Positions 3 to 37,820 of a stretch of DNA of 64,000 bases are shown here, piece after piece (position 1 is the first letter of the stretch; every line of letters begins with the position of its first letter). The stretch is from an uncultured Bacteroidales bacterium (GTDB lineage Bacteria; Bacteroidota; Bacteroidia; Bacteroidales; FEN-979), in NCBI GenBank assembly GCA_903916595.1, contig CAIWXI010000049.1:23396-87395 (forward strand). Direction: 5' to 3'. The position numbers and the translations under genes were made by a program. The notes beneath the pieces are model-generated. The model made no database searches and was not told the origin of the DNA. It was given only the letters and a program-made list of their open reading frames with translations.

Positions 3-338
3 GTAAAAACCTATCTCAGCGGGAAATATGAGCTTGATATCGCTTCCACCGCCGAAACTGCGCTGATAATGGCTCCCGAGGGACTATATGATGTGATCCT
101 TATGGATATCAACCTGGGCCCCGGCATGGACGGAATACAAGCCACCCGGGAGATCAGAAAACTAACAGGTTATGCCGAAGTCCCCGTGATTGCAGTAACG
201 GGCTTCACCATGGCCGGTATGAAAGAAAAGATTATGGATGGAGGAGCCTCGTATTTCCTGGCAAAGCCATTCGGTAAAAATAGCCTCGTGGATCTGCTGG
301 TAACAGTGCTGCCAGAGGAAGGAAGGACTGATGACTGA
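3..338 (+). CDS. response-regulator receiver (REC) domain, 5' end cut by the window edge; probably the C-terminal REC of a hybrid sensor kinase
   Basis: The frame is open from nt 3 (VKTYLSGKYELDIASTAETALIMAPEGLYDVILMDINLGPGMDG...), so the ATG at 69 in the ORF track is internal. DVILMDINLGPGMDG (phospho-acceptor Asp context), VIAVTG and FLAKPF are classic REC motifs. Confidence 0.8.
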   Translation, partial: VKTYLSGKYELDIASTAETALIMAPEGLYDVILMDINLGPGMDGIQATREIRKLTGYAEVPVIAVTGFTMAGMKEKIMDGGASYFLAKPFGKNSLVDLLVTVLPEEGRTDD

Positions 339-381
339 TGGCAGATATCAGATTTTTCACCATTTCACCATTTCACCATTT
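328..381 (+). repeat. four phased heptamers (CTGATGA CTGATGG CAGATAT CAGATTT) followed by (ATTTCACC)x3.5
   Basis: Read directly. Overlaps the REC stop and ends 9 nt before the GT2 ATG. Confidence 0.9.
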
Positions 382-389
382 AACAATCC

Positions 390-1403
390 ATGTCCACCTT
401 CAGCATCCTCGTCCCTACCTATAATCATGAGCAGTTTATCGACGACTGTATCCGCTCGGTAGTTGCCCAGACCTTTACTGATTGGGAAATGATCGTGCTC
501 GACGACGGGAGTCCCGACGGAACTGGCGCTCTGGTGAGGGAATGGGCTAAATCGGAGCTGAGGATCACCTACATCCGCCAGTCCAACAAAGGGATCTTCA
601 GGCTGTTCGAAACCAATAATTACGGACTGGGGATATCCAAAGGAAAATATATTTGTATTCTTGAGGGGGATGATTACTGGGAAAAGGATAAGCTGCAAAA
701 ACAGTTCAATGCCCTGGAAAGTCACCCTGAAGTGGTTCTCTGCTGGGGGAAAGTCAATGCCTTTTCATCCGAGACCAAAAAAATTCACACTATACTTCCC
801 ATGGTGGGCAGCACCGTCCCATTCTCATGGAACAATAATCCCTCAGGTAATATTTTAAACAATCTGTGTCTCGATAATTTCATTCCTTCGGTAACTATAA
901 CGATGCGAAGAACGGCTCTTGAAGAGATCGGCGGGTTCCAGGAACTGCAGGGATTTCCCGCAACAGATCTGCCCACGGTTCTAAAACTGGCAACCATGGG
1001 GCCGTTTTATTTCTGTAATGAGATCCTTGCCAATTACAGGATACAGAGCAACCAGATCACAAAAGTATATTCTATCAAATTACTGGAACAAAGAATACAG
1101 TTCATCCACGGGTTTATCGCTTCCCTGCCTCCCGTGATAAAACAACAGCTTATGCTGACGACCCCGCAACTGGACCGGCATTTCAGAAAGACCCGGCTGA
1201 TAACCCGTGTTGTTTCGGGCCGTCACAAGCTCATCCGCCAGGAATATAAAGAAGCAAGAAAAGATTTTCTTGCCGCCCTCGAAACCCGATCAGCTTTACT
1301 CCCCGCCTGGAGGCTTGCGGCATTCGCCGGACTGGTTTTCGGCCTCTTCCACCGCAACATGGAAGGATTGCTGCAGGTCCTGGGTAAGACGGGATACCGG
1401 TAA
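390..1403 (+). CDS. glycosyltransferase family 2 (GT-A fold)
   Basis: N-terminus FSILVPTYNHEQFIDDCIRSVVAQTFTDWEMIVLDDGSPDGT plus LEGDDYW (DXD-type) is the GT2 signature. Confidence 0.85.
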   Translation: MSTFSILVPTYNHEQFIDDCIRSVVAQTFTDWEMIVLDDGSPDGTGALVREWAKSELRITYIRQSNKGIFRLFETNNYGLGISKGKYICILEGDDYWEKDKLQKQFNALESHPEVVLCWGKVNAFSSETKKIHTILPMVGSTVPFSWNNNPSGNILNNLCLDNFIPSVTITMRRTALEEIGGFQELQGFPATDLPTVLKLATMGPFYFCNEILANYRIQSNQITKVYSIKLLEQRIQFIHGFIASLPPVIKQQLMLTTPQLDRHFRKTRLITRVVSGRHKLIRQEYKEARKDFLAALETRSALLPAWRLAAFAGLVFGLFHRNMEGLLQVLGKTGYR

Positions 1404-1414
1404 GGCGCTTCGCA

Positions 1415-1470
1415 CCGATAACAGATATCGGATAACGGATGTCGGATAACAGATGTCGGATAACAGATGA
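1415..1470. repeat. eight phased heptamers CCGATAA CAGATAT CGGATAA CGGATGT CGGATAA CAGATGT CGGATAA CAGATGA
   Basis: Read directly. Begins 12 nt after the GT2 stop. Confidence 0.9.
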
Positions 1471-1507
1471 CTGAATTTTGTATTTTTGACTTTTTAAAAT
1501 CGATTGC

Positions 1508-1846
1508 ATGAAAATTATCGCTCAGCCTGTCATCTTATCTGAACTTTGGGAAAACCGGGAGGTTGATTTTACTGAAATGATGAAAATTGTTGTTGATGTG
1601 AAGCAGGAGATTCTCGCTATCGATGCTGAAATGCATGCTGATCTCGAACAGGATTTGCTGGCCGAAGGGAGTCAGCAACAGGATCTCTGGGGCGCAAACA
1701 TCTATCCTTTAAAAGAAGCGGATGATCGGTTAGAATACACATCTTTCATTAATATAAGGCCTTCACTGGGAAACAGTTCCATGGAGGTCATTGATCCCGG
1801 CATCAGAAATAAAATTGCTGCAATCGCAGATCATTTGCTGATATGA
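1508..1846 (+). CDS. hypothetical small acidic protein (possibly DUF5674-like; recollection only)
   Basis: 112-aa ORF with ATG start, bracketed by heptamer arrays and with no competing ORF. No catalytic motif recognised. Confidence 0.5.
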   Translation: MKIIAQPVILSELWENREVDFTEMMKIVVDVKQEILAIDAEMHADLEQDLLAEGSQQQDLWGANIYPLKEADDRLEYTSFINIRPSLGNSSMEVIDPGIRNKIAAIADHLLI

Positions 1847-1854
1847 TTCGAGAG

Positions 1855-1933
1855 TCGTACATCGTAATTCGTACATCGTACATCGTACTTTATACATCGT
1901 AATTCGTAAATCGTAATTCGTAAATCGTAAATC
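1855..1933. repeat. eleven phased heptamers TCGTA[CA][AT] (one degenerate TTATACA)
   Basis: Read directly. Fills the 1847-1936 spacer. Confidence 0.9.
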
Positions 1934-1936
1934 AAA

Positions 1937-2299
1937 GTGTATCCCCTCGTCTATCATAAAACCCTTACCACCGAAAAGTGGAACTCATATCCCCGCTTTC
2001 AGCAAATCCTGATGATTGCAAATGAGATGAACCGTGCGCAGAATGCACTGCTGAAAAACGACACTCAAAACGCCATACATGCCTGGGAACGCGCATTTGA
2101 ACTGACAGATCTTACAATCAACGACTCCAGTAATGTCAGATATTTAAAGGAGCTCCTTCGCTTCAGGGAATTATCGGGGGAATTGTTCCTGAACCCCGAT
2201 GCCGATTTCAGCAAGGCACTTATGAATGCACTGATAAGCCTGGACCCGAAAGCCTGGAATATGTTGAGATATCAGATATCTGCCATCAGTAATCAGTAG
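1937..2299 (+). CDS. hypothetical protein
   Basis: 120-aa ORF with a GTG start 4 nt after the heptamer array. The last ~10 codons (RYQISAISNQ) are encoded by AGATATC/TGCCATC repeat DNA. It overlaps the mutY stop convergently by 7 nt. Confidence 0.45.
   Translation: MYPLVYHKTLTTEKWNSYPRFQQILMIANEMNRAQNALLKNDTQNAIHAWERAFELTDLTINDSSNVRYLKELLRFRELSGELFLNPDADFSKALMNALISLDPKAWNMLRYQISAISNQ
2267..2294. repeat. four phased heptamers AGATATC AGATATC TGCCATC AGTAATC inside the 3' end of ORF 1937..2299
   Basis: Read directly. Same units and orientation as 23458-23499. Confidence 0.85.
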
Positions 2300-3420: not shown

Positions 3421-3427
3421 AGAGTTG

Positions 3428-3435
3428 CAAAAGTA
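3428..3435 (-). promoter_or_regulatory. Bacteroidota -7 box TActTTTG, 7 nt upstream of the mutY ATG
   Basis: The plus strand reads CAAAAGTA. Matches the TAnnTTTG consensus. Confidence 0.4.
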
Positions 3436-3452
3436 CGATAAGTAGTGAAACG

Positions 3453-3508
3453 GTGAGCCATGAGCCGTGACACGTGACACGTGACACGTGGTACGTGCTT
3501 CGTACATC
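3453..3508. repeat. eight phased heptamers GTGNNNC (GTGAGCC ATGAGCC GTGACAC x3 GTGGTAC GTGCTTC GTACATC)
   Basis: Read directly. Lies upstream of the mutY start/-7 box. Confidence 0.9.
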
Positions 3509-3593
3509 TGTCCTTCGGCCCCGCATCTTCCACATCTTCACGCCGATTTGAAAAATATATTTCCCTTTACCCCTTGTTTTCCTAAAAAAGTCC

Positions 3594-3601
3594 TATATTT
3601 G
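3594..3601 (+). promoter_or_regulatory. -7 box TAtaTTTG for the HU/bS22-like operon
   Basis: 67 nt upstream of ATG 3669. Confidence 0.55.
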
Positions 3602-3959: not shown

Positions 3960-3978
3960 GCAAATTTATAAACAGGAT

Positions 3979-4068
3979 ATGCCGAGCGGAAAGAAACGTA
4001 AAAGACATAAGATGGCCACACACAAGCGTAAAAAACGCTTGCGTAAGAACCGGCACAAGAAGAAGTAA
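3979..4068 (+). CDS. 29-aa highly basic micro-protein (bS22/AURKAIP1-like candidate ribosomal protein); not in the ORF track
   Basis: ATG 3979 to TAA 4066-4068 encodes MPSGKKRKRHKMATHKRKKRLRKNRHKKK. It lies 19 nt after the HU stop on the same strand. The composition and KKRKR..HKRKKRLRK pattern resemble mycobacterial bS22. Confidence 0.5.
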   Translation: MPSGKKRKRHKMATHKRKKRLRKNRHKKK

Positions 4069-5717: not shown

Positions 5718-5725
5718 TTTAATGG

Positions 5726-5790
5726 ACGATGTACAATGTACGATGTACGATTAAAGAGTCCTTCGTACATCGTACATCGTAAATCGTACA
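5726..5790. repeat. inverted heptamer arrays (ACGATGT ACAATGT ACGATGT ACGA / TCGTACA TCGTACA TCGTAAA TCGTACA) giving a ~25-bp hairpin with a 12-nt loop
   Basis: Read directly. Occupies the rng-trpS spacer and ends 4 nt before the trpS ATG. Confidence 0.9.
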
Positions 5791-5794
5791 TTCC

Positions 5795-6796: not shown

Positions 6797-6799
6797 TTA

Positions 6800-6833
6800 T
6801 CGAATATTGATCAAGGAATATTGAATGTTGAAG
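6800..6833. repeat. GAATATTGA repeated at 14-nt spacing (…GAATATTGATCAAG GAATATTGAATGTTGAAG)
   Basis: Read directly. Related, in the opposite orientation, to 37780-37820. Confidence 0.8.
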
Positions 6834-6843: not shown

Positions 6844-8430
6844 ATGAAACACCTGAAACTTCGGCTTCTGCTGCTTTCCCTCGCTTCCGGATTGCTCTTT
6901 TCCCTTGCCTGGCCTGAGAAAGGAGTTCCGGTCTTGTTGTTTATTGCTTTTGTCCCTTTACTGCGGATGGAGGAGCTTATCAGCTCAAACCGTGAGAAAT
7001 TTAACCGGTTCTCGGTGTTTTTCTGGTCGTATCCCGGTTTCTTCCTGTGGAATTTGCTTACTACCTGGTGGATAGTGAATTCAACCGGACAGGGCGCTGC
7101 CATGGCCGTTTTGCTCAACGCCATGTTCATGAGTATTGTGTTCGCCTTTTTCAGCGGAACAAAGCGCAGGCTGAACAGCAGACCCGCCGGATACCTGGCC
7201 CTGGTCTGTTACTGGGTGATGTTTGAATACCTTCACCTGAACTGGGACCTGAACTGGCCCTGGCTTAACCTCGGAAACGGCTTTGCTTCCTATTCTCACT
7301 GGGTACAGTGGTACGAATATACCGGGGCGTTCGGGGGAACGGTGTGGGTGCTGGTAGCGAATGTGATGATTTTTTCCATTTTAAATGGTGAAATGGTGAA
7401 TCGCCATTTCACCATTTTACTTACTATCCTTCTCCCCATCGCCTTCTCCTACCTCCTCTACTACACTTATAAAGAGAAGGCATGGCCCGTCAACGCTGTG
7501 ATTGTTCAGCCCAACATCGATCCGTATTCCGAGCAGTATGTTCTGCCGCCACAGCAGGTTTTAGGAAGGATCATGAGTATCGCGGGAACCGCTCTTGATT
7601 CCTCGACCAATATCCTGGTGACTCCCGAATCGGCGCTTCAGCAGGAAATGTGGGAGAATGAGTTGGAAACTTTTGAGAGTATTAAACTGGCGAGACAGAT
7701 TATAACAAAGTATCCTGGGCTGAATATTATTCTCGGGGGGACTACTTTTTACGCTTTCAGACCGGACGAGAAAATTCCGCATACCGCCCGGAAGTTCACT
7801 CAGGAGGACCGCTGGTACAACAGGTATAACGCGGCGATCATGGTGAACAGCCATCCGCAGATACAGACCTATCATAAATCAAAACTCACGCCGGGAGTTG
7901 AGATTCTGCCCTCATATAACGGATTCAAATGGCTTGAAAAATATGCTATCGACCTCGGCGGAATTGTCGGAAGCCTCGGCACCGACTCGGTTCGTAAGGT
8001 TCTTCAGGTTGTGAGCATGCCCCCGGTGGCGGCTTGTATCTGCTATGAATCGATTTTCGGGGAATTTTTTGCCGAATTCGTCAGGAATGGCGCCCAGGTG
8101 ATGTGTATTATCACCAACGACGGATGGTGGGGTAATACCGCCGGGCACAGACAGCATTTTTCTTTTGCCCATCTGCGTGCTATCGAGACCCGCCGAAGTA
8201 TTCTCCGATCGGCCAATACCGGGATTTCGGCCGTGATCGACCAAAGGGGCGATGCGCATCAGCAGACGAAATACTGGGTCCCGGCGGTGATCAAAACCAC
8301 TGTTAATGCAAATGATAAAATAACTTTCTACACCGCACATGGCGATTACATCGCGTTCTGGCTTTCGTGGCTCGGCGGATTGCTTTACCTTGGGTCTCTG
8401 GGAGTATGGGTCATGAGGAAACGTATCTGA
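6844..8430 (+). CDS. lnt: apolipoprotein N-acyltransferase
   Basis: Polytopic N-terminal half plus a CN-hydrolase domain with catalytic-Cys context VAACICYESIFGEF. Contains a short in-frame octamer hairpin insert (7383-7417). Confidence 0.85.
   Translation: MKHLKLRLLLLSLASGLLFSLAWPEKGVPVLLFIAFVPLLRMEELISSNREKFNRFSVFFWSYPGFFLWNLLTTWWIVNSTGQGAAMAVLLNAMFMSIVFAFFSGTKRRLNSRPAGYLALVCYWVMFEYLHLNWDLNWPWLNLGNGFASYSHWVQWYEYTGAFGGTVWVLVANVMIFSILNGEMVNRHFTILLTILLPIAFSYLLYYTYKEKAWPVNAVIVQPNIDPYSEQYVLPPQQVLGRIMSIAGTALDSSTNILVTPESALQQEMWENELETFESIKLARQIITKYPGLNIILGGTTFYAFRPDEKIPHTARKFTQEDRWYNRYNAAIMVNSHPQIQTYHKSKLTPGVEILPSYNGFKWLEKYAIDLGGIVGSLGTDSVRKVLQVVSMPPVAACICYESIFGEFFAEFVRNGAQVMCIITNDGWWGNTAGHRQHFSFAHLRAIETRRSILRSANTGISAVIDQRGDAHQQTKYWVPAVIKTTVNANDKITFYTAHGDYIAFWLSWLGGLLYLGSLGVWVMRKRI
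7383..7417. repeat. octamer hairpin AAATGGTGAAATGGTGAA-tcgc-CATTTCACCATTT in frame inside lnt
   Basis: Read directly. Encodes LNGEMVNRHFTIL. Confidence 0.9.
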
Positions 8431-9454: not shown

Positions 9455-9458
9455 TTTA

Positions 9459-9782
9459 CTTCTGCTCTTACTTTGCAGCTCTCAGCTACGGAACTATTAC
9501 GACCCACCATCGGCTTGCTTCCTAAGCCAGGTCAGCCGTTCGGTACTATGTTTGTCTCTTTTATAATGGGATAACCACTTAGTGAAGTCTAATTGAAGCG
9601 AAACATCTCACACAAGCTGCCTTGGGTGTTAAGGAGCGAATTACCCTTTAGAGTAAAATCTGGTAAATCATTCATGAGTGACGCAAACACCCCAGCAGCG
9701 GTGTGAGGATGTGAGCTAATGTAGGTCGCAGTAGTTTCGTAGCTGAGGGGTGCAGGGTCAGCGATGAAGCAGTAATGCAGAG
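9459..9782 (+). ncRNA. orphan highly structured element: candidate ncRNA, or alternatively a MITE-like element with ~24-bp terminal inverted repeats
   Basis: No ORF, lying between two convergent stops. 9481-9504 pairs with 9724-9747 (24 positions: 21 Watson-Crick, 2 G-U, 1 A-C mismatch on the + strand). A nested helix pairs 9604-9630 with 9686-9711, and there is a small hairpin GGCTT-GCTTCCT-AAGCC at ~9512-9528. Strand was assigned only from the G-U count. Confidence 0.4.
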
Positions 9783-9791
9783 ATGCCAGCG

Positions 9792-11150: not shown

Positions 11151-11241
11151 AAAAGTATGTGTTTAAACAGGGTGTTACGACATCCGCCGAAAGAAAATAT
11201 AAACAAGATTTTGTTGGGAAATATTTTATCCCTATTTCCAT

Positions 11242-11249
11242 TATCTTTG
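11242..11249 (+). promoter_or_regulatory. -7 box TAtcTTTG for polA
   Basis: 15 nt upstream of the in-frame TTG 11265. Confidence 0.5.
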
Positions 11250-11264
11250 CATAAAACCACTAAC

Positions 11265-14159
11265 TTGCCAGAAAACAAACTCTTCCTCCTCGATGCAATG
11301 GCCCTGATCTACCGGGCCTACTACGCGTTCAAGAACAACCCCAGGGTGAGTTCCAAAGGAGTAAACACCTCTGCTGCTTTCGGATTTGCCAATACTCTTT
11401 TTGATGTACTGCGGAAGGAAAAGCCCACGCATATAGGTGTTGCCTTTGATACCATCGCACCTACCGTGCGCCACGAAGGGTACGAATTGTACAAAGCTCA
11501 CCGACAGGAAACCCCGGAAGATATAATTTTATCAATTCCTCTTATTCACGAACTTCTTCACGCTTTTAGAATTCCCGTTCTTTTTGTTGATGGCTTTGAG
11601 GCGGATGACGTAATTGGTACCCTCGCCAGGCAGGCTGAAACTGCGGGATGGACTACTTATATGATGACTTCGGATAAGGACTTCGGACAACTTGTAAGTG
11701 CTACCACCCTGATTTACAAGCCCGGAAAGTTCGGCGGAGATGTTGAGATCATGGGCGTGAAGGAAGTCTGCGAGAAGTTCGGGATCAGCAATCCGCTTCA
11801 GGTCATCGATATGCTTGGTTTATGGGGAGATGCGTCGGATAATATACCTGGTATTCCCGGCGTGGGCGAAGTCACGGCCCGCAAACTCCTGGCCGAATTC
11901 GGCTCGGTGGAAAATCTTGTTGAACACCCAGAGAAGGTTGCCAACGAAAAACTGCGTCAGAAAGTTATTGAATTCAAAGATCAGGCCCTGATGTCGAAAA
12001 GCCTGGCAACTATCATTCTTGATGTTCCCATCGCCTTCGAACCGGATAAACTGGTCGTGGAAGCACCCGATGAGCTGCGGCTGAAAAGGTTGTTTGATGA
12101 ACTAGAGTTTCGGGCGCTCGGGGAACGTGTTTTCAAATGGGCGGCAGGGATGCAGGATCCAGGATCCAGGATCCAGGATGCAGGATCCAAAATCTTACAT
12201 CCCGCATCTGACATCCCGGACCTTTTCTCCGACCTTGAATCTGCTTCCCCAATCCCTAATCCCCAGTACCCAGTCACCCAGTCACCCAGTCATCCTGCAT
12301 CCAGCATCCTGGATCACGACTCACGGATCACGGATCACGACTCACTTGCCACGATCTCTGACACTCCCCACACCTATGTTCTTGTCAACACACAGGAAGC
12401 CCGCCTTGACCTCATCCGCAGTCTTAAGAAATCAAAAACATTCTGCTTTGACACGGAAACTACGGGAATTGACCCTAACAACTCGGAACTGGTAGGGATG
12501 TCGTTTTCGGTGAAGCCGCATGAGGCATATTATATTCCTCTCCCCGAGAACTACCATGAGACTGAACTTATCGTCCAGGAGTTCAAGGATGTACTTGAAG
12601 ATCCCAAGATCGAAAAAGTGGGACAGAACATGAAGTTCGACATTGCGATCCTGAAATGGTACGGCATCGATGTTAAGGTTCCCATGTTCGACACTATGCT
12701 GGCGCATTACCTTTTGCAGCCCGACATGAGGCATAATATGGATTTCCTCTCGGAGATCTATCTGAAATACAAGCCGGTACCTATTGAATCCCTCATAGGA
12801 AAAAAGGGCGCGGGCCAGCTTAGCATGCGCACGGTTGATACTGATACAATTAAAGAATATGCTGCGGAGGATGCTGATGTGACTCTTCAGCTGAAAAATG
12901 TGTTCGAGCCTTTGCTGGCTGATAGTGATACCCGTAAACTGTTCGACGAGATAGAGATTCCGCTCATTCCTGTTCTTGCTTCTATGGAAAAGGAAGGTGT
13001 GCGGATAGATTCTTCGGTTTTGAACGAATATTCGGTGGAGCTTGAAAAAGAAGTACTTATAATTAAGGAAGAGATTTTCAGGGAAGCCGGAACAACGTTT
13101 AACATCTCTTCTCCAAAACAGCTGGGCGAAATCCTTTACGAACGGCTGAAGATCGTTGAAAAGCCCAGGCAGACCAAGACCAAGCAGAATTCAACGAGCG
13201 AAGATGTGCTGACTAAGCTTGAAGCAAAACATCCGATCATCAGCAAAATATTGGAATACCGGTCTTTGGCAAAATTGAAGTCGACGTATGTGGATGTGCT
13301 TCCATTGTTGGTAAGCCCCCGTGATAATCGCATTCATACATCGTATAACCAGGCGGTTGCGGCTACAGGCAGACTGAGCTCCAATAATCCAAACCTTCAG
13401 AACATCCCTATCCGCACAGAGAAAGGGCGTGAAATCCGCAAAGCGTTTGTGCCCAGGAATGATAATTATATCTTGCTGAGCGCCGACTATTCCCAGATCG
13501 AACTTCGCATCATCGCATCGATGAGCGGGGATAAAAACATGATGGAGGCCTTTAAAAATGGCGAGGACATCCACCAGGCGACGGCTGCCAAGATTTACGG
13601 CATGAAGCTTTCTGAGGTGAGCAAGGACATGCGCAGGAATGCCAAAATGGTGAACTTCGGGATTATATACGGAATTTCAGCATTTGGTTTGTCAGAACGT
13701 TCAGGCATGTCGCGAAAAGAAGCTGCGGATGTGATAAAACAGTACTTTGAACAATACCCCGGGATCAGGGAGTATATGGATAATACCATCGCTTTTGCCC
13801 GGGCTAACGGTTTTGTGGAAACCCTTATGAAACGCAGGCGTTACCTTAGGGATATCCATTCGGGCAATGCCAACGTTCGCGGATTTGCCGAACGAAACGC
13901 CATCAATGCACCGGTTCAGGGTACAGCGGCCGATATGATAAAGATTGCCATGATCAGGATTTTTCATAAGTTTGAAGAGCAAAAACTAAGGTCGCGGATG
14001 ATATTGCAGGTTCACGACGAACTTGTGTTTGATGTGCATAATTCTGAAGTTGAAGAAGTTAAAAATATAATTGAAATTGGAATGAAGAACGCGTTGCTGC
14101 TGGATGTACCTGTTGAGATTGACATGAATACAGGAGCGAACTGGTTGCTGGCGCATTAG
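11265..14159 (+). CDS. polA: DNA polymerase I; the inter-domain linker is built from heptamer/octamer repeat DNA
   Basis: 5' nuclease (KLFLLDAMALIYRAYYAF), 3'-5' exonuclease (FCFDTETTG), polymerase motifs A (LLSADYSQIELRI), B (RRNAKMVNFGIIYG) and C (QVHDELVF). Start proposed at the in-frame TTG 11265, 15 nt after a TAtcTTTG box. The track ATG at 11157 would leave only 6 nt for the divergent phoH-like promoter. Confidence 0.85.
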   Translation: MPENKLFLLDAMALIYRAYYAFKNNPRVSSKGVNTSAAFGFANTLFDVLRKEKPTHIGVAFDTIAPTVRHEGYELYKAHRQETPEDIILSIPLIHELLHAFRIPVLFVDGFEADDVIGTLARQAETAGWTTYMMTSDKDFGQLVSATTLIYKPGKFGGDVEIMGVKEVCEKFGISNPLQVIDMLGLWGDASDNIPGIPGVGEVTARKLLAEFGSVENLVEHPEKVANEKLRQKVIEFKDQALMSKSLATIILDVPIAFEPDKLVVEAPDELRLKRLFDELEFRALGERVFKWAAGMQDPGSRIQDAGSKILHPASDIPDLFSDLESASPIPNPQYPVTQSPSHPASSILDHDSRITDHDSLATISDTPHTYVLVNTQEARLDLIRSLKKSKTFCFDTETTGIDPNNSELVGMSFSVKPHEAYYIPLPENYHETELIVQEFKDVLEDPKIEKVGQNMKFDIAILKWYGIDVKVPMFDTMLAHYLLQPDMRHNMDFLSEIYLKYKPVPIESLIGKKGAGQLSMRTVDTDTIKEYAAEDADVTLQLKNVFEPLLADSDTRKLFDEIEIPLIPVLASMEKEGVRIDSSVLNEYSVELEKEVLIIKEEIFREAGTTFNISSPKQLGEILYERLKIVEKPRQTKTKQNSTSEDVLTKLEAKHPIISKILEYRSLAKLKSTYVDVLPLLVSPRDNRIHTSYNQAVAATGRLSSNNPNLQNIPIRTEKGREIRKAFVPRNDNYILLSADYSQIELRIIASMSGDKNMMEAFKNGEDIHQATAAKIYGMKLSEVSKDMRRNAKMVNFGIIYGISAFGLSERSGMSRKEAADVIKQYFEQYPGIREYMDNTIAFARANGFVETLMKRRRYLRDIHSGNANVRGFAERNAINAPVQGTAADMIKIAMIRIFHKFEEQKLRSRMILQVHDELVFDVHNSEVEEVKNIIEIGMKNALLLDVPVEIDMNTGANWLLAH
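12145..12218. repeat. about 10 phased heptamers: CAGGGAT GCAGGAT CCAGGAT x3 GCAGGAT, then polarity flip CTTACAT CCCGCAT CTGACAT; in frame in polA
   Basis: Read directly. Confidence 0.9.
12262..12345. repeat. mixed array: CCCAGTA (CCCAGTCA)x3 TCCTGCA TCCAGCA TCCTGGA TCACGAC TCACGGA TCACGGA TCACGAC; in frame in polA
   Basis: Read directly. Confidence 0.9.
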
Positions 14160-14288
14160 AAATGGTGAAATGGTGAAATGGTGAGAATTAATTGTAGAAA
14201 ATAAATGTAGGAATTTAATCTTCTTTTTATTTCACCATTTCACCATTTCACCATTTCACCATTTCACCATTTCACCATTTCACCATTT
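14160..14288. repeat. (AAATGGTG)x3 - 44-nt AT-rich spacer - (ATTTCACC)x7.5: unequal inverted octamer arrays
   Basis: Read directly. The left arm starts 1 nt after the polA stop and the right arm ends 12 nt before the ROK ATG. Confidence 0.95.
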
Positions 14289-14300
14289 AATAATACCCCC

Positions 14301-22125: not shown

Positions 22126-22136
22126 TTGAGAATATG

Positions 22137-22177
22137 TGTAACGTATTACCTGATAGGTGATACGTTACATTTTTTTA
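22137..22177 (+). terminator. intrinsic terminator after the second C25 gene
   Basis: TGTAACGTA-(15 nt)-TACGTTACA followed by T7. The hairpin overlaps the convergent corC stop. Confidence 0.7.
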
Positions 22178-23463: not shown

Positions 23464-23499
23464 CTGCCATCTGATATCAGATATCAGATATCAGATACA
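23458..23499. repeat. six phased heptamers TGCCATC TGCCATC TGATATC AGATATC AGATATC AGATACA
   Basis: Read directly. Includes the corC start codon (23461-23463) and fills its leader. Confidence 0.9.
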
Positions 23500-23504
23500 T
23501 TTTC

Positions 23505-34533: not shown

Positions 34534-34555
34534 TCGGTTGTCTTTGTTCAATGCT

Positions 34556-34603
34556 AAATGGTGAAATGGTGAAATGGTGAAATGGTGAAATGGTGAAATG
34601 GTG
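34556..34603 (-). repeat. (ATTTCACC-phase) octamer x6 on the sense strand of the TPR gene, 22 nt upstream of its ATG
   Basis: The plus strand reads (AAATGGTG)x6. Confidence 0.95.
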
Positions 34604-34650
34604 TTCGGCGAAGCCGTAATGAACACAAATAAAATAGACAATTCGTGAAT

Positions 34651-34670
34651 AAATGGTGAAATGGTGAAAT
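34651..34670 (-). repeat. second octamer block x2.5, same orientation
   Basis: The plus strand reads AAATGGTGAAATGGTGAAAT. Lies 12 nt from the dut stop. Confidence 0.9.
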
Positions 34671-34682
34671 TCATTCCTTCTC

Positions 34683-35117
34683 TCATTTATGACCCGTTGA
34701 TCCAAATCCTCCTGCACCGCGGCTTGTTTCTTCGAGCTCTTCCACCTGCATCCATTCGGCCTGCTCATGGGCAGCGATGATCATCTGAGCGATCCGGTCG
34801 CCATCCTTCACTACGAAATCCTCATTGGATAGATTTACAAGAATTACTTTAACCTCTCCACGGTAATCGGCATCGATAGTGCCGGGAGTATTGAGCACTG
34901 TAACGCCTTTTTTAATAGCAAGCCCGCTGCGTGGCCTAACCTGGGCTTCGAATCCAGGAGGAATTTCGATAAATAATCCTGTAGATACCAAAGCTCTTCC
35001 GAGTGGTTTCAAAACGATATCCTGTGGAACAAACGCCCTCAGGTCCATCCCTGCTGAGGCAGAAGTTTCATAGGCCGGCAGGGGATGGTGGGAAGTGTTG
35101 ACAATCCTGATTTTCAT
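34683..35117 (-). CDS. dut: dUTP diphosphatase
   Basis: 144 aa. Motifs AGMDLRA and [28 protein letters not shown]-terminal [10 protein letters not shown]. Confidence 0.9.
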
Positions 35118-35150
35118 AGGGAAATCTGATGTGCAAAGGTAACAAAAAAC

Positions 35151-36650
35151 TCAATTGGAGACCTTTACCCCACCTGGCTTTTCAAGAAAAAAGGCCGTCA
35201 GCAGAAAAACAGAAAGCAAGCCGGTGTGAAGGAGGATGCGGGATGCGGGATGCGGGATATTGGTATAAACGCTGATCAGATAGAGCAGAAGTGCAAGGCC
35301 GGCATAGCCCGCTGCTTTCCAGATCCTGTATGGAACCGGATAATATTTCTGTCCCAAAAGGTAAGCCACGACCATCATACTTCCATAGCAGATGAATGTG
35401 GCCCAGGCCGATCCGACATAACCATGGAGGAGGTGGCCGGGGCCCAGGGGGATCCACCAGAAATTCAGTGACAAAGTGATAACTGCACCCATCAGCGAGA
35501 GCCAGGCTCCCCAGATGGTTTTCCCGGTAAGCTTGTACCAGATCGAAAGGTTGTAGTATATGCCCAGGAAAATGTTGGCGAACATCAGAACAGGGATGAC
35601 CTCTTTGCCAACCCAGTATTTCTTGTCGATGAGATGCAGGAAAACATCATCCAGAAAAAGCATGGTCACCAGGAAGGTTGTAAGGACCGCAATGATGAAA
35701 TAATCCATGATCCTGGCGTAAGTCTGGCCTGAATCTTTTTCTTTGGCATGGGCAAAAAAGAAAGGTTCAGCGGCAAAGCGATAGGCCTGAACAAACAAGG
35801 TGATCAGAATGGATATTTTGTAACAGGCGCTGTAAATCCCAACCTGGGCTTCGCTAAGATCGGTCGAAAGCGGCAGCAGGTATCTCAGCATCAGCCTGTC
35901 GAGGGTTTCATTGACCATCCCGGCAAGTCCGGCAAACAACAAGGGAAACGCGTAAACCAGCATACGCTTCCACAGTTCGGTGTGCATCTTCCACTTCATG
36001 TTCACGATCATTGGAACAACGAGGGCGAGGGTAATGAAACTGGCGGCGACGTTTGCAATGAACACGTATTCTAATTCCCAATCGGGACGGTAAATCAGTC
36101 GCAGCATAGCATGCAGGGAAGGGAAGCTGTTCCACAGATACGGGCAAAGCAGAATAAAAAACAGGGTCAGTCCTATATTCGTGAAGATGTTGATCATTTT
36201 AAGGGTAGCGAAGCGGCCTGCCTTATTCTGTGAGCGCAGCCTTGCAAAAGGGATGGCGACCAGGGCGTCGAGCCCGAGAATCCATGCAAACCAGATCACG
36301 TATTTTGACTGACCGGGGTAATCGATCCATCCGGCAATGGTTCCCGAAAAAATGCTTGCAAGGAATATGAATGAACCTGAAGTAATCAGCAGCGAAAGCA
36401 TACCGGTGCTGAACACACTGTCTTTGTTTTCTTCCTTCTCGCTGAACCGGAAAAAAGCCGTCTCCATTCCATACGTAATCACCACCATGAGGAAGGAGGC
36501 ATAGGCATAAAACACACTGATAGTTCCGTACTGTGCCGGAGAAAAGACCCTGGTTAGCAGAATGACCATCAGGTATTGCAGAAACCGGCCCAGGATCGTG
36601 GGTATTCCGTAGACAGCGGTTTGAGAGGCAAGACGTCTGATTGATGACAT
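35151..36650 (-). CDS. oligosaccharide flippase family (Wzx/MOP superfamily) membrane protein
   Basis: 499 aa with ~14 TM helices. The N-terminus (RLASQTAVYGIPTILGRFLQYLMVILLTRVF) is typical of polysaccharide-biosynthesis flippases. The C-terminal loop contains a (GATGCGG)3 repeat. Confidence 0.75.
   Translation of the reverse strand: MSSIRRLASQTAVYGIPTILGRFLQYLMVILLTRVFSPAQYGTISVFYAYASFLMVVITYGMETAFFRFSEKEENKDSVFSTGMLSLLITSGSFIFLASIFSGTIAGWIDYPGQSKYVIWFAWILGLDALVAIPFARLRSQNKAGRFATLKMINIFTNIGLTLFFILLCPYLWNSFPSLHAMLRLIYRPDWELEYVFIANVAASFITLALVVPMIVNMKWKMHTELWKRMLVYAFPLLFAGLAGMVNETLDRLMLRYLLPLSTDLSEAQVGIYSACYKISILITLFVQAYRFAAEPFFFAHAKEKDSGQTYARIMDYFIIAVLTTFLVTMLFLDDVFLHLIDKKYWVGKEVIPVLMFANIFLGIYYNLSIWYKLTGKTIWGAWLSLMGAVITLSLNFWWIPLGPGHLLHGYVGSAWATFICYGSMMVVAYLLGQKYYPVPYRIWKAAGYAGLALLLYLISVYTNIPHPASRILLHTGLLSVFLLTAFFLEKPGGVKVSN
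35232..35259. repeat. (GATGCGG)x3-4 in frame near the flippase C-terminus
   Basis: GGAGGATGCGGGATGCGGGATGCGGGATAT. Encodes ...NIPHPASRILLH... on the minus strand. Confidence 0.9.
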
Positions 36651-36657
36651 TTTTTTT

Positions 36658-36713
36658 CAGATAACGGATAATGGATAATGGATAACGGATGGCAGATGGC
36701 ATCCATCATCTGA
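36658..36713. repeat. eight phased heptamers CAGATAA CGGATAA TGGATAA TGGATAA CGGATGG CAGATGG | CATCCAT CATCTGA
   Basis: Read directly. Lies in the flippase-operon leader between the -7 box (36732-36739, minus) and ATG 36650. Confidence 0.9.
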
Positions 36714-36731
36714 CGCTAACCTCCAAGTGTC

Positions 36732-36739
36732 CAAAATTA
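36732..36739 (-). promoter_or_regulatory. -7 box TAatTTTG for the flippase-dut-TPR... operon
   Basis: Left half of the palindrome CCAAAATTA-atca-TAATTTTGG. Confidence 0.5.
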
Positions 36740-36743
36740 ATCA

Positions 36744-36751
36744 TAATTTTG
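36744..36751 (+). promoter_or_regulatory. -7 box TAatTTTG for RNase H gene
   Basis: Right half of the same palindrome, 16 nt upstream of ATG 36768. Confidence 0.5.
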
Positions 36752-36767
36752 GGCTGATAAATAAACG

Positions 36768-37400
36768 ATGGCAAAATCAAAATATTACGTCGTCTGGAAC
36801 GGCCGTAAACCCGGGATCTACGAGGGATGGGATAAATGCAGGGATCAGGTTGCAGGATTTACCGGGGCGAAGTTCAAAGGCTTTCCCACGGCCGACCTGG
36901 CCCGAGGCGCTCTGAACGACGATCCCCGGAAGTACATGGAGAAAGGACTTCAGACGCCGAAAAAGATCATCTGTAAAAATCCCCTGGTCGGTGAACCCAT
37001 TGCCGACAGTATCTGTGTCGACGCGGCTTGCAGCGGTAACCCCGGGGTTCTCGAATACCGAGGGGTTGATACCGCTTCAGGTGCAGAGTTGTTCAAGGTC
37101 GGGCCTTTCCCCCAGGGTACGGTGAACATAGGTGAGTTCCTTGCCGTTGTGCATGCACTTGCATATCTGAAACAAAGAGGTTCAGACTGGCCCATCTACT
37201 CCGATTCCCGCACAGCTCTTGCCTGGCTCAGGAAAAGAGCCATCAACACCAAACTCGAAGTATCAGATAAAAACAGGGAACTGTTTAAACTGGTCGACCG
37301 GGCTGTTTCCTGGATCAGGAACAACTGCTGGAAAAATCCCGTACTGAAGTGGGAAACCGAATACTGGGGGGAGATTCCTGCTGATTTTGGCAGGAAATGA
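36768..37400 (+). CDS. RNase H (type 1) with an N-terminal hybrid-binding / caulimovirus-VI-like domain
   Basis: N-terminus YYVVWNGRKPGIYEGWDKCRDQVAGFTGAKFKGF, then an RNase H-like core (ICVDAACSGNPGVLEYRGV, GEFLAVVHAL, IYSDS). Confidence 0.75.
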   Translation: MAKSKYYVVWNGRKPGIYEGWDKCRDQVAGFTGAKFKGFPTADLARGALNDDPRKYMEKGLQTPKKIICKNPLVGEPIADSICVDAACSGNPGVLEYRGVDTASGAELFKVGPFPQGTVNIGEFLAVVHALAYLKQRGSDWPIYSDSRTALAWLRKRAINTKLEVSDKNRELFKLVDRAVSWIRNNCWKNPVLKWETEYWGEIPADFGRK

Positions 37401-37404
37401 GCAG

Positions 37405-37435
37405 TTATCCGATATCGGATAAAGTCGGATAAAAC
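37405..37435. repeat. perfect palindrome TTATCCGATATCGGATAA plus an extra CGGATAA copy
   Basis: Read directly. Overlaps the yraN stop, 5 nt after the RNase H stop. Confidence 0.85.
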
Positions 37436-37779
37436 GCATCGGGGATATGACTGATTTCAGTGCCCTTATCATCCGCAATTACTGAAACAACATCGAACCT
37501 TACTTCACCCTGGAATCTCCTGAATTTCACAAATGCATTTGCAGCCCTGATCAGCAGCTTTTGTTTTGCAGGTGTGACCCATTTCGACGGCTCTCCAAAA
37601 TACCTTGTGTTCCGTGTTTTAACTTCTACAATTACAAGAACCCCTTTCTCTGTGGCAACAATATCAATTTCGGCCTTCCCTGCCCGGAAGTTGCGTGCCA
37701 GGATCTTCATACCTTTCGCAAGAAGGAACTCTGCCGCAAGGGCTTCGCCTTTTTTTCCGAGGTCGTAGGACCTACTCAT
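37405..37779 (-). CDS. yraN: YraN family (UPF0102) endonuclease-like protein
   Basis: 124 aa. GKKGEALAAEFLLAKGMKILARNFRAGKAEIDIVA...VIVEVKTR is the YraN/PD-(D/E)xK signature. Confidence 0.8.
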   Translation of the reverse strand: MSRSYDLGKKGEALAAEFLLAKGMKILARNFRAGKAEIDIVATEKGVLVIVEVKTRNTRYFGEPSKWVTPAKQKLLIRAANAFVKFRRFQGEVRFDVVSVIADDKGTEISHIPDAFYPTLSDIG

Positions 37780-37820
37780 TCAACATTCGATATTCGTTGT
37801 TCAACATTCGATATTCATTT
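37780..37820. repeat. two 21-nt units TCAACATTCGATATTC(n5)
   Basis: Read directly. Fills the spacer between the LD-carboxypeptidase stop and the yraN ATG. Confidence 0.9.

Follow-up and report, generated by a model that had tools for sequence, protein, structure and literature searches.

Tandem hepta- and octanucleotide arrays in spacers and genes of an uncultured freshwater Bacteroidota

Arrays and their position relative to genes

The stretch of DNA analyzed here (the window; 64 kb, 64,000 nt) comes from an uncultured freshwater Bacteroidota and was studied together with fragments from relatives. Its first part carries short tandem arrays between genes, in 5'UTRs and inside coding sequences; the genes flanking them have no common function. 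The features are as follows (+ or −, strand;., no strand assigned).

326–354 (.): heptamer array, ACTGATG ×2 with GCAGATA/TCAGAT; contains the stop codon (336–338) of the upstream sensor-kinase gene
355–387 (+): octamer array, TTTCACCA ×3.4; ends 8 nt before the GT2 start codon; polymorphic insertion site of a 47-nt element
1404–1416 (+): 13-nt GC hairpin, GGCGCTTCGCACC; directly 3' of the GT2 stop codon, abutting the next array
1413–1472 (+): 14-nt-period array, (GATAACA GATGTCG) ×3.8; upstream of a TATTTTTG box at 1481
1855–1936 (+): direct heptamer array, TCGTA[CA][AT] ×11.3; fills the DUF5674–hyp120 spacer; unstructured, fold z-score +2.2
2261–2297 (.): array of GATATCA ×2, TGCCATC and AGTAATC; overlaps the convergent hyp120 and mutY stop codons
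2814–2909 (−): inverted heptamers, CGGATGY/GGGATAY versus CTGCATC, inside the mutY coding sequence; hairpin of −51 kcal/mol; encodes an extra loop of ~28 aa
3453–3508 (.): CGTGACA ×3.6 array with degenerate flanks; upstream of the mutY −7 box at 3428–3435
5721–5793 (.): inverted arrays, ATGTACG ×4 / TCGTACA ×4; fill the whole RNase G–trpS spacer; hairpin of −33 kcal/mol, z-score −6.3
6797–6833 (+): degenerate GAATATTGA array; its conserved motif GAATATTGAATGTTGAA ends 11 nt before the lnt start codon
7383–7416 (+): octamer palindrome, AAATGGTGAAATGGTGAATCGCCATTTCACCATTT, in the lnt coding sequence; encodes LNGEMVNRHFTIL
12145–12218 (+): GGAT[GC]CA ×6, then inverted CATCCCG CATCTGA CATCCCG; polA linker; z-score −2.4
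12246–12345 (+): TCCCCAA run, CCCAGTCA ×4 (octamer), CATCCTG and GGATCACGACTCAC arrays; polA linker
14155–14295 (.): GAAATGGT ×3.2, 34-nt AT-rich spacer, ATTTCACC ×7.5; fills the polA–ROK spacer to 5 nt from the ATG
23456–23501 (−): TGCCATC ×2.3 and ATCAGAT ×4.1; between a TATCTTTG box (23505) and the CNNM start codon; z-score −2.9
34550–34672 (−): AAATGGTG ×6, 47-nt element (34604–34650), AAATGGTG ×2.5; upstream of the TPR gene start at 34533
35227–35264 (−): GGATGCG ×3.6 inside the Polysacc_synt (flippase-like) gene; G3N4 ×4 motif on the + strand
36655–36715 (−): GATAA[CT]G ×4.4, GATGGCA ×2, CATCCAT CATCTGA; Polysacc_synt 5'UTR, from a TAATTTTG box (36732) to the ATG
37773–37820 (−): 21-nt-period array with two copies of GAATATCGAATGTTGAA; ends at the UPF0102 start codon; sequence conserved in relatives

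In a lag scan of the window, self-match windows of at least 22/28 occurred only at lags 7 (10 segments), 8 (4), 14 (4), 16 (2) and 21 (4), and the same scan of 100 block shuffles yielded just one segment, at lag 19; a looser scan gave 14 segments versus 0.08 expected. The tandem-repeat finder (TRF) and the lag scans therefore confirm that the period-7 arrays proposed in the initial annotation, which form one family, are real and far above shuffles, and every array listed there was recovered, by TRF and in the sequence, at or near its position. However, the annotation had missed a second, period-8 family, AAATGGTG/CACCATTT, which occurs at six places (355, 7383, 14155, 14224, 34550 and 34651). 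The same period specificity holds in 2.46 Mb of loci from other Bacteroidota, in which 70 perfect arrays have a 7-nt unit and 42 an 8-nt unit, compared with at most 4 for units of 5, 6 and 9–11 nt.

TRF and both lag scans agree that the window contains no arrays beyond ~38.8 kb, as first noted. Before ~38.75 kb, arrays make up 28% of the intergenic bases and occupy 11 of the 21 junctions of at least 25 nt, compared with none of eight after it (Fisher p = 0.012); the junction enrichment is real, but about half of these junctions, not most, are filled. Array density is 18.9% in intergenic and 0.68% in coding DNA, which makes arrays about 28 times denser in non-coding DNA than in genes, although 409 of the 1079 array bases are coding and lie in-frame within mutY, polA, the flippase gene and lnt. 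The proposed placement, exactly between a stop codon and the next start codon or between a TAnnTTTG box and the ATG, is true of some arrays: seven lie in box-less spacers, some within a few nucleotides of the next start codon, and only two (23456–23501 and 36655–36715) lie between box and ATG. However, two others (1413–1472 and 3453–3503) lie upstream of the box, and the picture is too narrow because arrays also stand in-frame inside essential genes. Codons are supplied by the arrays as well, namely the stop codon TGA at 336–338 and at the mutY end and the start codon of CNNM, which sits within a GATGGCA unit.

Inverted arrays do exist, and three hairpins are very stable (z-scores of −6 to −9); the array at 14155–14295 folds at −50 kcal/mol with a z-score of −9.3. 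However, only about 5/16 arrays, forming strong or moderate hairpins, fold better than shuffles, so that imperfect hairpins are fewer than had been supposed; one array is less structured than its shuffles, and folding of 6797–6833 against shuffles gave no secondary structure. An Rfam search of the arrays returned no family match, giving nothing but spurious miRNA-type hits at 14155–14295, and no terminator signature was found in them. They are neither CRISPR nor REP/BIME elements, as already concluded.

The GAT/ATC core that had been ascribed to the arrays holds up as a statistical bias. Relative to the remainder of the window, heptamer arrays are enriched 2.8-fold in GAT/ATC, 4.7-fold in GGAT/ATCC and 8.2-fold in GGATG/CATCC, and the core is present in about 8/11 unit families (binomial p of about 2 × 10⁻⁴). 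However, the core is not defining: the CGTGACA array, regarded as its one exception (GTGNNNC, 3453–3508), indeed lacks it, but so do all octamer arrays, and it is weak in the ATTCAAC arrays. The GAATAT[TC] motif noted as common to 6800–6833 and 37780–37820 was located, as GAATAT[TC]GAATGTTGAA, at 6816 and in minus-strand copies ending at 37816 and 37795.

The arrays are arranged both directly and invertedly. Identical units recur at unlinked loci, including AAATGGTG at its six places, TCGTACA, and a GATGGCA+GATATCA composite at four places. The arrays at 326–354 and 2261–2297, which are 86% complementary, are two copies of a dispersed 'gene-end module'. The 13-nt GC hairpin also adjoins arrays at two sites in L001 and is interleaved nine times in an L103 array; its single in-window match is not above chance.

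Variation between strains and species

Strains were compared using independent metagenome assemblies from different samples and pipelines (ENA and JGI). Strains at 99.7–99.9% identity to the window have four indel loci (55, 7, 21 and 84 nt), every one of them in an array; at ~97.3% identity there are five indels in 21.4 kb, of which the largest two fall in arrays. Copy-number steps are 7, 14, 21 and 28 nt between genes and, in coding arrays, only multiples of 21 nt (21, 42, 63 and 84 nt). Whole-unit gain and loss in arrays outpaces every other kind of indel; the copy-number variation that the initial annotation had suggested looking for is present across the assemblies, and strongly supports slippage, one of its candidate origins, as the type of variation. 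Among the spacer arrays, L007 has one additional unit at 326–354, strains differ by 7, 21 or 28 nt at 1413–1472, a 14-nt indel at 1855–1936 occurs in the 97.5% strains and a 7-nt indel sets L090 apart at 36655–36715. Larger changes are a 41-nt insert containing GGCGCTTTGCGC at 2261–2297 (L001, L003 and L007) and the array at 3453–3508, in place of which GGATGCA and GGGGAACT arrays stand wholly in the 97.5% strains.

Inside genes, mutY alleles differ in the copy number of a 21-nt unit (2, 3, 4 or 5), and the polA array at 12145–12218 has 6, 12 or 18 units depending on the strain (steps of 42 or 84 nt); that at 12246–12345 shows 9- and 12-nt indels in the 97.5% strains with the frame kept. The MutY array loop is an insertion relative to solved MutY structures, and in an AlphaFold2 model with a mean pLDDT of 85.8 only this insert falls below 50. 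Homologues with 57% identity or more have an insert of anything from 0 to ~100 aa, and distant homologues lack it. The polA arrays are positioned before the Klenow fragment. In Polysacc_synt and lnt, coding sequence has been overwritten by an array without a change in length, with 12 ancestral residues replaced at 35227–35264. Arrays inside genes are found only at permissive sites, namely a disordered loop in MutY, the linker between PolA domains and segments of membrane proteins.

Different species retain arrays at the same junctions, but the sequence of the units is replaced over time. At any one site the array evolves in place, and its units in one species differ from those in another by one or two mutations. 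The Polysacc_synt 5'UTR site is empty in five relatives and is occupied by four unrelated unit families in others.

Nature of the arrays and alternative explanations

The arrays probably represent a hepta-/octanucleotide satellite of the LSSR/STRR type resident in this freshwater lineage. Heptameric SSRs have been reported in Xanthomonas, Nostoc, Beggiatoaceae, Microcystis and five Bacteroidetes (PMC4679880, PMC4692102); cyanobacterial STRR arrays, likewise heptameric, were aptly named as the closest precedent, although the published class is wider. The present arrays would add a new and rich case to a known but little-understood class of bacterial satellite DNA. The best reading is that the satellite is selfish and driven by slippage, and that spacers, UTRs and protein loops tolerate its presence. 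Slipped-strand mispairing would account for the unit-step changes and intra-strand template switching for the inverted arms, ectopic conversion or mobile hairpin arrays with tiny embedded elements may carry the same units to unlinked loci, and selection would filter where arrays survive. Judging from their positions, most arrays would be transcribed (in seven promoter-less operon spacers, two 5'UTRs and four coding sequences) and should therefore have a phenotypic effect on mRNA structure, spacing and start- or stop-codon context. Copy-number changes could tune expression, probably as a by-product and not as a designed signal; the RNase III-processed heptamer tract in the Haemophilus influenzae hmw 5'UTR is a documented precedent (PMC12721329).

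Several observations tell against this reading. Pure slippage fails to explain identical units at unlinked loci or the coding overwrite without length change in Polysacc_synt and lnt, and all eight strains have the same sequence in the hairpin at 5721–5793. Besides slippage, some mechanism that copies units from one locus to another is required. Furthermore, the GAT/ATC bias, the motif GAATATYGAATGTTGAA, which adjoins two start codons and is conserved in relatives, and CACCAUUU, which is sense-oriented before three start codons, hint at a sequence-specific function for some arrays.

It is possible, but rather unlikely, that at least the hairpin-forming and octamer arrays are non-autonomous, foldback- or MITE-like mobile DNA with arms of short tandem units, as would be the ultra-small inserts (the 47-nt element and the 13-nt GC hairpin), mobilized by an enzyme encoded elsewhere in the genome, with slippage only modulating copy number after insertion. 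The 47-nt element, which is embedded in arrays, has imperfect inverted termini (ATTCACGAA and TTCGCCGAA), and at two loci some strains carry it and others do not. At 357, L002, L004, L005, L006 and L008 carry it with exactly one extra octamer (55 nt) between 100% identical flanks; at 34580, L090 and L091 are without it and three octamers (71 nt in all). A third copy lies in L102 within the 37773–37820 array, flanked by (T)AATATT. However, its loss is equally explicable by recombination between flanking octamers, and only three insertion sites were found in the 2.46 Mb of fetched loci. A ~330-nt hairpin array at an unrelated L103 junction has the same centre and arms as the mutY hairpin array, and the recurrence of units and composite modules at unlinked loci, the filled and empty Polysacc_synt 5'UTR sites, and the likeness of the in-frame palindromic insertions to Rickettsia palindromic elements (PMC10969869) also favour mobility; nevertheless, the hairpin arrays lack clear target-site duplications and fixed termini, evolution at a single site proceeds in place, and no transposase or RAYT-like gene was detected in the window by Pfam on 20 ORFs and precomputed domains.

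Somewhat more doubtful is the idea that the arrays are selected cis-regulatory RNA elements, in which intercistronic or 5'UTR hairpins or unstructured tracts, modelled on REP/BIME hairpins and the hmw tract, would control mRNA processing, stability and translation initiation or coupling, with copy number as an expression rheostat. The array-filled promoter-less spacers, the two arrays between −7 box and ATG, the three very stable hairpins, the array-derived stop and start codons, the hmw precedent and the retention of an array at junctions despite unit change are consistent with such a role. However, most arrays are no more structured than shuffles, the same arrays are also found within genes and ahead of promoters, five relatives do without any array at the 5'UTR site, and the arrays show neither a terminator signature nor an Rfam match, nor do their flanking genes share a function.

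The omega protein of pSM19035 has heptads WATCACW in direct and inverted orientation. By analogy, the arrays could be phased sites for a DNA- or RNA-binding protein reading a GAT/ATC-containing heptad, such as a cooperative, omega-like ribbon-helix-helix repressor or centromere protein, or an S1/Csp-type RNA binder (the MacGregor proposal); this is improbable. The core enrichment, the GATCACG and GATCACA units in the polA linker and the L098 5'UTR, the two orientations and the conservation of GAATATYGAATGTTGAA point towards a binder. However, unit sequences vary greatly from locus to locus and, at one site, are replaced from species to species, which a sequence-specific binder would not permit, and the CGTGACA, ATTCAAC and all octamer arrays count as lacking the core, which unit families may share by descent from one another. 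In addition, arrays lie inside coding sequences, and the window showed no candidate for the binding protein.

Finally, metagenome assembly artefacts can be dismissed with near certainty: the mutY array does interrupt assemblies (scaffolds L170–L172 have a gap of 100 N; contigs L173 and L174 start inside it), so that short-read copy numbers may be uncertain, but arrays are mostly shorter than the assembly k-mer length, the reading frame is always kept in coding arrays, and independent ENA and JGI assemblies contain the same arrays, with copy numbers that are strain-specific and consistent.

Period and placement of the arrays

The initial annotation had described 7-nt-phased arrays between the genes of the first 38 kb, and at each position that it named Tandem Repeats Finder (TRF) returned a period of 7 or a multiple of 7. 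The lag autocorrelation that it had proposed was run on the window (28-nt windows with at least 22 self-matches), and self-matching was found at lags 7, 8 and their multiples only: ten segments at lag 7, four at lag 8, four at lag 14, two at lag 16 and four at lag 21. The control of 100 block shuffles gave a single lag-19 segment in one shuffle and otherwise none, and a looser lag scan yielded 14 segments against 0.08 expected. By TRF and by these scans against shuffles, the arrays have the form of long simple sequence repeats (LSSRs), namely head-to-tail tandem units of 5-11 nt that are longer than chance. Furthermore, TRF revealed a previously missed period-8 family, the AAATGGTG/CACCATTT octamer arrays, in six places.

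Genes were mapped from the gene calls on matching public contigs together with Pfam. Intergenic DNA makes up 5.5% of the window, and arrays occupy 18.9% of these bases (28% before 38.75 kb) compared with 0.68% of coding bases, a 28-fold intergenic over-representation of the kind that also characterizes LSSRs. Among junctions of at least 25 nt, arrays are present in 11 of the 21 that precede 38.75 kb and in none of the eight that follow it (Fisher p = 0.012). The absence of arrays beyond 38.8 kb was borne out, nothing comparable being detected there; the right-hand third of the window contains, among other things, closely packed operons and a glycan gene cluster of low GC.

The host belongs to an uncultured Bacteroidota lineage, as judged from its proteins and the nearest MAGs, and is present in public environmental metagenomes; in RNase G, the nearest species-representative genome is no more than 67% identical. 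The fetched Bacteroidota loci (2.46 Mb) contained 70 perfect arrays of at least three copies for 7-nt units and 42 for 8-nt units, with at most four for each of the unit lengths 5, 6, 9, 10 and 11. In other Bacteroidota the arrays are sporadic. The spacer downstream of RNase G in distant Bacteroidota (a Bacteroidales MAG, Chryseobacterium and a Bacteroidia isolate) also bears 7-, 8- or 16-nt arrays with unrelated units.

Arrays 3' of RNase G in homologous loci
L011, 11552-11632
L061/L062, approximately 11650-11760
L034, 11741-11783

Variation between strains and species, and arrays inside genes

Relatives were assembled as syntenic loci from independent assemblies, found by exact-protein look-ups and a metagenome scan, the latter of which also supplied the strain series for approximately 23-38 kb. 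The strain set comprises loci that are 99.7-99.9% or about 97.5% identical to the window (L001-L008, L090 and L091), and the species set is a graded series reaching as low as about 55% protein identity. The near-identical strains have four indel loci, every one of them in an array, with lengths of 55 nt, 7 nt, 21 nt (mutY) and 84 nt (polA), the first corresponding to a 47-nt element plus one octamer. Comparison with 97.3% identical strains over 21.4 kb gave five indels in total, the two large ones of which (71 and 7 nt) are in arrays. The comparison of copy number between strains that had been suggested earlier shows whole-unit steps, which measure 7, 14, 21 or 28 nt in intergenic arrays and 21, 42, 63 or 84 nt in coding ones. 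These unit-step indels and in-frame allelic series show the arrays to be genuine, hypervariable and filtered by reading frame.

An origin as assembly artefacts is contradicted by the same comparisons across independent assemblies, although the arrays do break assemblies. Short 'MutY' proteins of 168 and 190 amino acids in the 90% cluster, considered as frameshift alleles, in fact result from 100-N scaffold gaps and contig ends within the array and are spurious entries of protein databases, and no evidence of phase-off mutY alleles was obtained. On contig SqFcA752, at the equivalent of about 34.5 kb, synteny is lost immediately after the TPR gene at an octamer junction, and the next gene is HhH-GPD in place of dUTPase, through either a rearrangement or a join made in assembly at the repeat. 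The convergent M28 peptidase/PhoH-PIN spacer (9455-9791, 337 nt) differs between the 99.7% and 97.5% strain groups by many scrambling indels, the latter group carrying a TCACGTG x3.7 array; this spacer has no Rfam match.

Assembly breaks within the mutY array of homologous loci
L170-L172, 2865-2964, 100-N gap
L173, 1-76, contig starts inside the array
L174, 1, contig starts inside the array

Several arrays, missed by the initial annotation, are in frame within conserved genes. The inverted arrays of mutY (2814-2909) encode approximately 28 residues (IQDAGCRLQDAGCRMQDILHPVSHIP...) that the solved Geobacillus MutY lacks between its positions 170 and 172. These are residues 170-197 of the protein, and the AlphaFold2 model (mean pLDDT 85.8) is confident except at the insert (residues 176-198), the sole part with a pLDDT below 50. 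The number of QDAGCR[LM] copies is two, three, four or five among the alleles, and the proteins accordingly measure 375, 382, 389 or 396 amino acids. In polA, arrays at 12145-12345 account for about 70 residues of the linker that joins the 5'-nuclease and Klenow parts, with 6, 12 or 18 GGATSCA units across strains. The flippase-like (Polysacc_synt) gene contains GGATGCG x3.6 at 35227-35264; its CCGCATC x4 array replaced 12 ancestral residues without changing the length of the protein, and has since decayed through point mutation in some species. An octamer palindrome lies in lnt at 7383-7416, and an array after the start codon of a sensor-kinase gene has either 21 or 12 units, depending on the strain, a difference of 63 nt that retains the frame. 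CATCCTG/CATCCCG/CATCTTG units at 3257-3520 of L001 (one of the strain loci), just upstream of the window start, encode the N-terminal MK(HPASRIL/HLASRIL)n of this hybrid sensor kinase, and an adjoining octamer array there has about 7.5 or about 15 units.

Arrays that are free of stop codons also inflate ORFs, as in mutY (404 versus 375 amino acids) and the TPR gene (615 versus 564). A stop-free span over-calls in-gene arrays in relatives because 5'UTR arrays are often open in the frame of the gene, and that count was left out. The call for polA begins at ATG 11298, yet conserved N-terminal residues (..NKLFLLDAMALIYRAYYAF) are encoded upstream (11157-11298), and the true start is probably an upstream non-ATG codon.

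Across species, array sites are kept while their units are replaced. Five relatives have a short empty site (TAATTTTGGGACAGATAAAAAAGCATG) as their flippase 5'UTR, which in others holds CCGTTAT, TCACGAT/TCACGGT, ACTAGGY or AACAGTG/TCACYAG arrays, often as hairpins. The MutY loop insert ranges from 0 to about 100 residues among homologues of at least 57% identity, with differing repeat-coded peptides such as DVRCQMS x5, and is absent from distant homologues.

Unit composition, folding and explanations considered

The GAT/ATC core that had been proposed for the units reflects a genuine bias (2.8-fold for GAT/ATC and 8.2-fold for GGATG/CATCC); however, it is missing from the CGTGACA array and from all octamer arrays. 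Of the many arrays for which hairpins had been suggested, about five fold significantly better than shuffles, three of them strongly and two moderately; the remainder are plain direct repeats.

Arrays with strong hairpins (z-scores relative to shuffles)
2810-2912, -51 kcal/mol, z-score -6.6
5718-5794, -33 kcal/mol, z-score -6.3
14155-14297, -50 kcal/mol, z-score -9.3

Placement between a TAnnTTTG promoter box and the ATG, also claimed earlier, was found for two arrays; two others lie upstream of the box and seven are in spacers that have no box. The arrays at 23456-23501 and 36655-36715 occupy the position of the heptamer SSR of hmw, between promoter and start codon, and these 5'UTRs gave folding z-scores of -2.9 (23454-23503) and -0.5 (36651-36720). 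ACTGATG modules overlap two stop codons, and the other arrays have no consistent orientation.

Three other explanations each account for part of the data, and each may hold for particular arrays. The first is that the arrays are mobile foldback or MITE-like DNA. A 47-nt element (ATTCACGAATTG...GGCTTCGCCGAA; ATTCAC...GCCGAA) with short, imperfect inverted ends lies within octamer arrays and is present or absent among close strains at two loci, 34604-34650 and site 357. A third copy, at 4247-4293 of L102 (a 77% identical relative), is in a different (AATATTC) array and is flanked by direct repeats of 6-7 nt. In this comparison with MITEs the element is polymorphic at two loci and has a third copy, but its terminal repeats are short and imperfect and it is smaller than typical MITEs. 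The arrays are unlikely to be accumulated target-site-duplication footprints of this element: site 357 differs by exactly the element plus one 8-nt unit, which fits simple insertion or precise loss rather than the build-up of footprints. A 13-nt GC hairpin, GGCGCTTCGCGCC, adjoins arrays at 1404-1416 and at 9787 and about 8590 of L001. At 7500-7730 of L103, a related locus, it alternates nine times with CATCCTGCATC to give an array of 26-nt period; the hairpin array that bears it there spans approximately 330 nt and matches the mutY insert in its centre and arms, but is situated at an unrelated intergenic junction. As a motif enriched in the window GGCGCTTCGCGCC was rejected (one match versus 0.86 expected), and its link to the arrays comes from related loci. 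Small dispersed repeats (SDRs) of Nostocaceae, as attributed to Elhai and co-workers in 2008, are reportedly mobile inserts of 21-27 nt with hairpin potential that occur within tandem heptameric repeats and differ in placement among close relatives. The 47-nt element and the 13-nt hairpin behave like such SDRs, while their sequences, sizes and phylum differ.

The second explanation is that the arrays are selected RNA elements. The fully conserved hairpin at 5721-5793 and a conserved GAATATYGAATGTTGAA motif beside two start codons are candidates for a specific function. Rfam at gathering thresholds matched tRNA only, with no array, and a more permissive scan, covering 1-40 kb, returned nothing but miRNA-like matches to the 14.2 kb hairpin, so that membership of a known RNA family was rejected. 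No array has the stem and T-run pattern of an intrinsic terminator; the best canonical terminator of the window (22136-22170, a 16-bp stem followed by T7) is at the array-free convergent C25 peptidase/CNNM junction. The motif GAATAT[TC]GAATGTTGAA occurs at 6816-6832 (+ strand) and 37779-37816 (- strand), on the sense strand immediately 5' of the lnt and UPF0102 starts; unlike the hypervariable arrays it is kept in relatives down to about 66% protein identity, and it may be a genuine regulatory site. At 37405-37440, adjoining the stop codon of a gene with a Cauli_VI domain, the 3' end of UPF0102 has a palindrome, TTATCCGATATCGGATAA, and after it GTCGGATAAAA (GGATAA units).

The third explanation, phased protein-binding heptads, has omega-type iterons as its model. 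These are contiguous 7-bp heptads of one consensus, found in promoters of a few co-regulated genes and bound by a cognate RHH protein. The arrays do not fit omega-type iterons, having many unrelated units that turn over between species and lying in some cases within coding regions.

Known classes of longer repeat are set aside, as the initial annotation had judged. CRISPR arrays consist of 23-55 nt repeats separated by unique spacers of similar length, whereas the units here are contiguous and 7-8 nt long, and even the 26-nt period array of L103 has constant 'spacers'. REPs are imperfect palindromes of 20-40 nt with conserved heads, linked to RAYT transposases. The present arrays resemble REP/BIME/REPIN sequences as abundant, hairpin-capable extragenic repeats in operon spacers, but they are not REP/BIME, their 7-8 nt units being non-palindromic and head to tail; no transposase-like gene, as in the RAYT linkage of REPs, was seen among the ORFs of the window.

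Knowledge of bacterial heptameric repeat arrays goes back to 1990. STRR, which Mazel and co-workers are said to have described in that year, are reportedly heptanucleotide tandem arrays dispersed through cyanobacterial non-coding DNA. The precedent holds as to general kind, the arrays here likewise being heptanucleotide tandem arrays dispersed in non-coding DNA; however, the host is not cyanobacterial and CCCCAGT, TTGGTCA and CAACAGT are nowhere tandem in the window, where CCCCAGT occurs once, beside a ACCCAGTC octamer array.

Among long SSRs, heptamers form the most frequent class (Mrazek et al. 2007 as summarised in PMC4679880; PMC4692102). Intergenic heptameric SSRs of Xanthomonas (GGGAATC) and Nostoc (GGGGAYT) include inverted copies and are conserved in position and variable in length and sequence (Rehm et al. 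2015, PMC4692102). The present arrays share with LSSRs and heptameric SSRs the tandem 7-nt units, the strongly intergenic location, the inversion of some copies and slippage as the proposed cause; as in Xanthomonas and Nostoc, G-rich units with an ATC/GAT core occur among them, and a G3N4 x4 motif is formed by the GGGATGC array at 35234-35258. They differ in having many unit families within a single genome and a parallel 8-nt family, in lying also in frame in conserved housekeeping genes and in their uncultured Bacteroidota host. TAACTGA repeats occur in Beggiatoaceae, Cyanobacteria and five Bacteroidetes, near start or stop codons and occasionally in ORFs (MacGregor 2015, PMC4679880); they contain stops in all three frames and show 7-nt-step indels between close strains (PMC4679880). 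The resemblance extends to 7-nt indel steps and occasional ORF copies and may extend to heptamers just upstream of starts or over stops, and the ACTGATG unit at 326-340 (x2-3) is one mismatch from the rotated unit ACTGATA. TAACTGA itself occurs seven times singly in the window with no tandem pair; most arrays here are built of other units and many have an inverted arrangement, and MacGregor 2015 (PMC4679880) does not report TAACTGA repeats inserted in well-conserved enzymes.

In Haemophilus influenzae, the phase-variable adhesin genes hmw1/hmw2 carry a 5'UTR heptamer SSR (ATCTTTC) that forms a long RNA hairpin with a complementary arm; its copy number varies among strains and RNase III dependence has been proven (PMC12721329). 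A heptamer array between promoter and start codon with strain-variable copy number is common to both systems, but hmw is one adhesin locus whose RNase III dependence is proven, whereas here dozens of loci of no common function are known from sequence. Rickettsia palindromic elements (RPEs) are in-frame palindromic inserts at fold-compatible positions of unrelated housekeeping genes (Ogata et al. 2000, reviewed PMC10969869). The mutY insert is likewise a palindromic repeat in frame at a structurally permissive site of a conserved gene; unlike the arrays, RPEs are about 150 bp long and conserved in sequence, are not built of 7-nt units and show no unit-step variation. For dispersal of one element in the manner of RPEs, the single related hairpin array is that of L103, other in-gene arrays having other units.

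Proposed origin and significance

The best-supported reading takes the arrays as a resident satellite of the LSSR/STRR kind, with units of seven and eight nucleotides. They vary in whole-unit steps, persist at their sites while units turn over, favour non-coding DNA and survive, filtered by frame, in permissive protein segments. Slipped-strand mispairing would account for the expansion and contraction of arrays and template switching for the inverted arms. Slippage alone does not explain the recurrence of units at unlinked loci or the length-neutral overwriting of coding sequence. Identical units are found at unlinked loci (AAATGGTG at six sites; TCGTACA at 1855 and 5721), and two genes end in copies of a composite ACTGATKACTGATGGCAGATATCWGAT module (326-354 and 2261-2297), from which both stop codons come. 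Units may be spread between loci by ectopic copying, through conversion or small mobile hairpin elements. Unit sharing among distant lineages is not above chance, perfect arrays being shared only among close relatives; looser coincidences, such as GGATAAC in a Saprospiraceae MAG, AATGGAC in Parabacteroides as well as in L163/L169, and AAATCGT in L164, are at about chance level.

Most arrays are presumably transcribed, and for this reason they probably alter mRNA structure and the context of start and stop codons. Expression could be tuned in the way of the H. influenzae hmw tract, as an incidental effect and not by design. It is improbable, in our estimate, that the arrays constitute an active repeat ecosystem, in which hairpin arrays and the 47- and 13-nt inserts are copied by a mechanism specific for 7-8 nt, overwriting coding patches and remodelling essential proteins in 7-residue steps. 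Such copying might require transcription or hairpins, a dependence lately argued for H. influenzae. In the same improbable reading, if the slips of a single 7-nt unit that are seen in spacers also struck the mutY and polA arrays, these mutation-avoidance genes would be turned off and on, giving a built-in reversible mutator switch.

The general kind of array has already been published, and this lineage is unusually rich in it. The allelic 21-nt series of mutY and polA, the length-neutral coding overwriting and the octamer family with its 47-nt insert appear not to have been described before. The lineage offers a rich natural experiment, with many 7- and 8-nt unit families and dozens of strain and species comparisons in public metagenomes, clean filled and empty sites, in-frame allelic series (mutY, polA and the sensor kinase) and tiny inserts that enter and leave arrays. 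The cause of the 7-8 nt unit size, the spread of units between loci and the tuning of expression or mutation rate by copy number are thereby made testable. Annotators of Bacteroidota MAGs should note that such arrays entail broken short-read assemblies, ORFs extended 5' of their true starts and spurious protein length variants.

Two further observations concern other parts of the window. The stretch 53238-64000 has, first, a second HU gene (53238-53528) and a tRNA (53576-53647) and, after them, a glycan biosynthesis/ABC-export cluster of low GC (29-43%); this cluster is array-free and may have been horizontally acquired. Between the HU and RNase G genes, a small ORF (3980-4068) encodes an extremely basic peptide of 29 amino acids (MPSGKKRKRHKMATHKRKKRLRKNRHKKK), which may be a small ribosomal protein.
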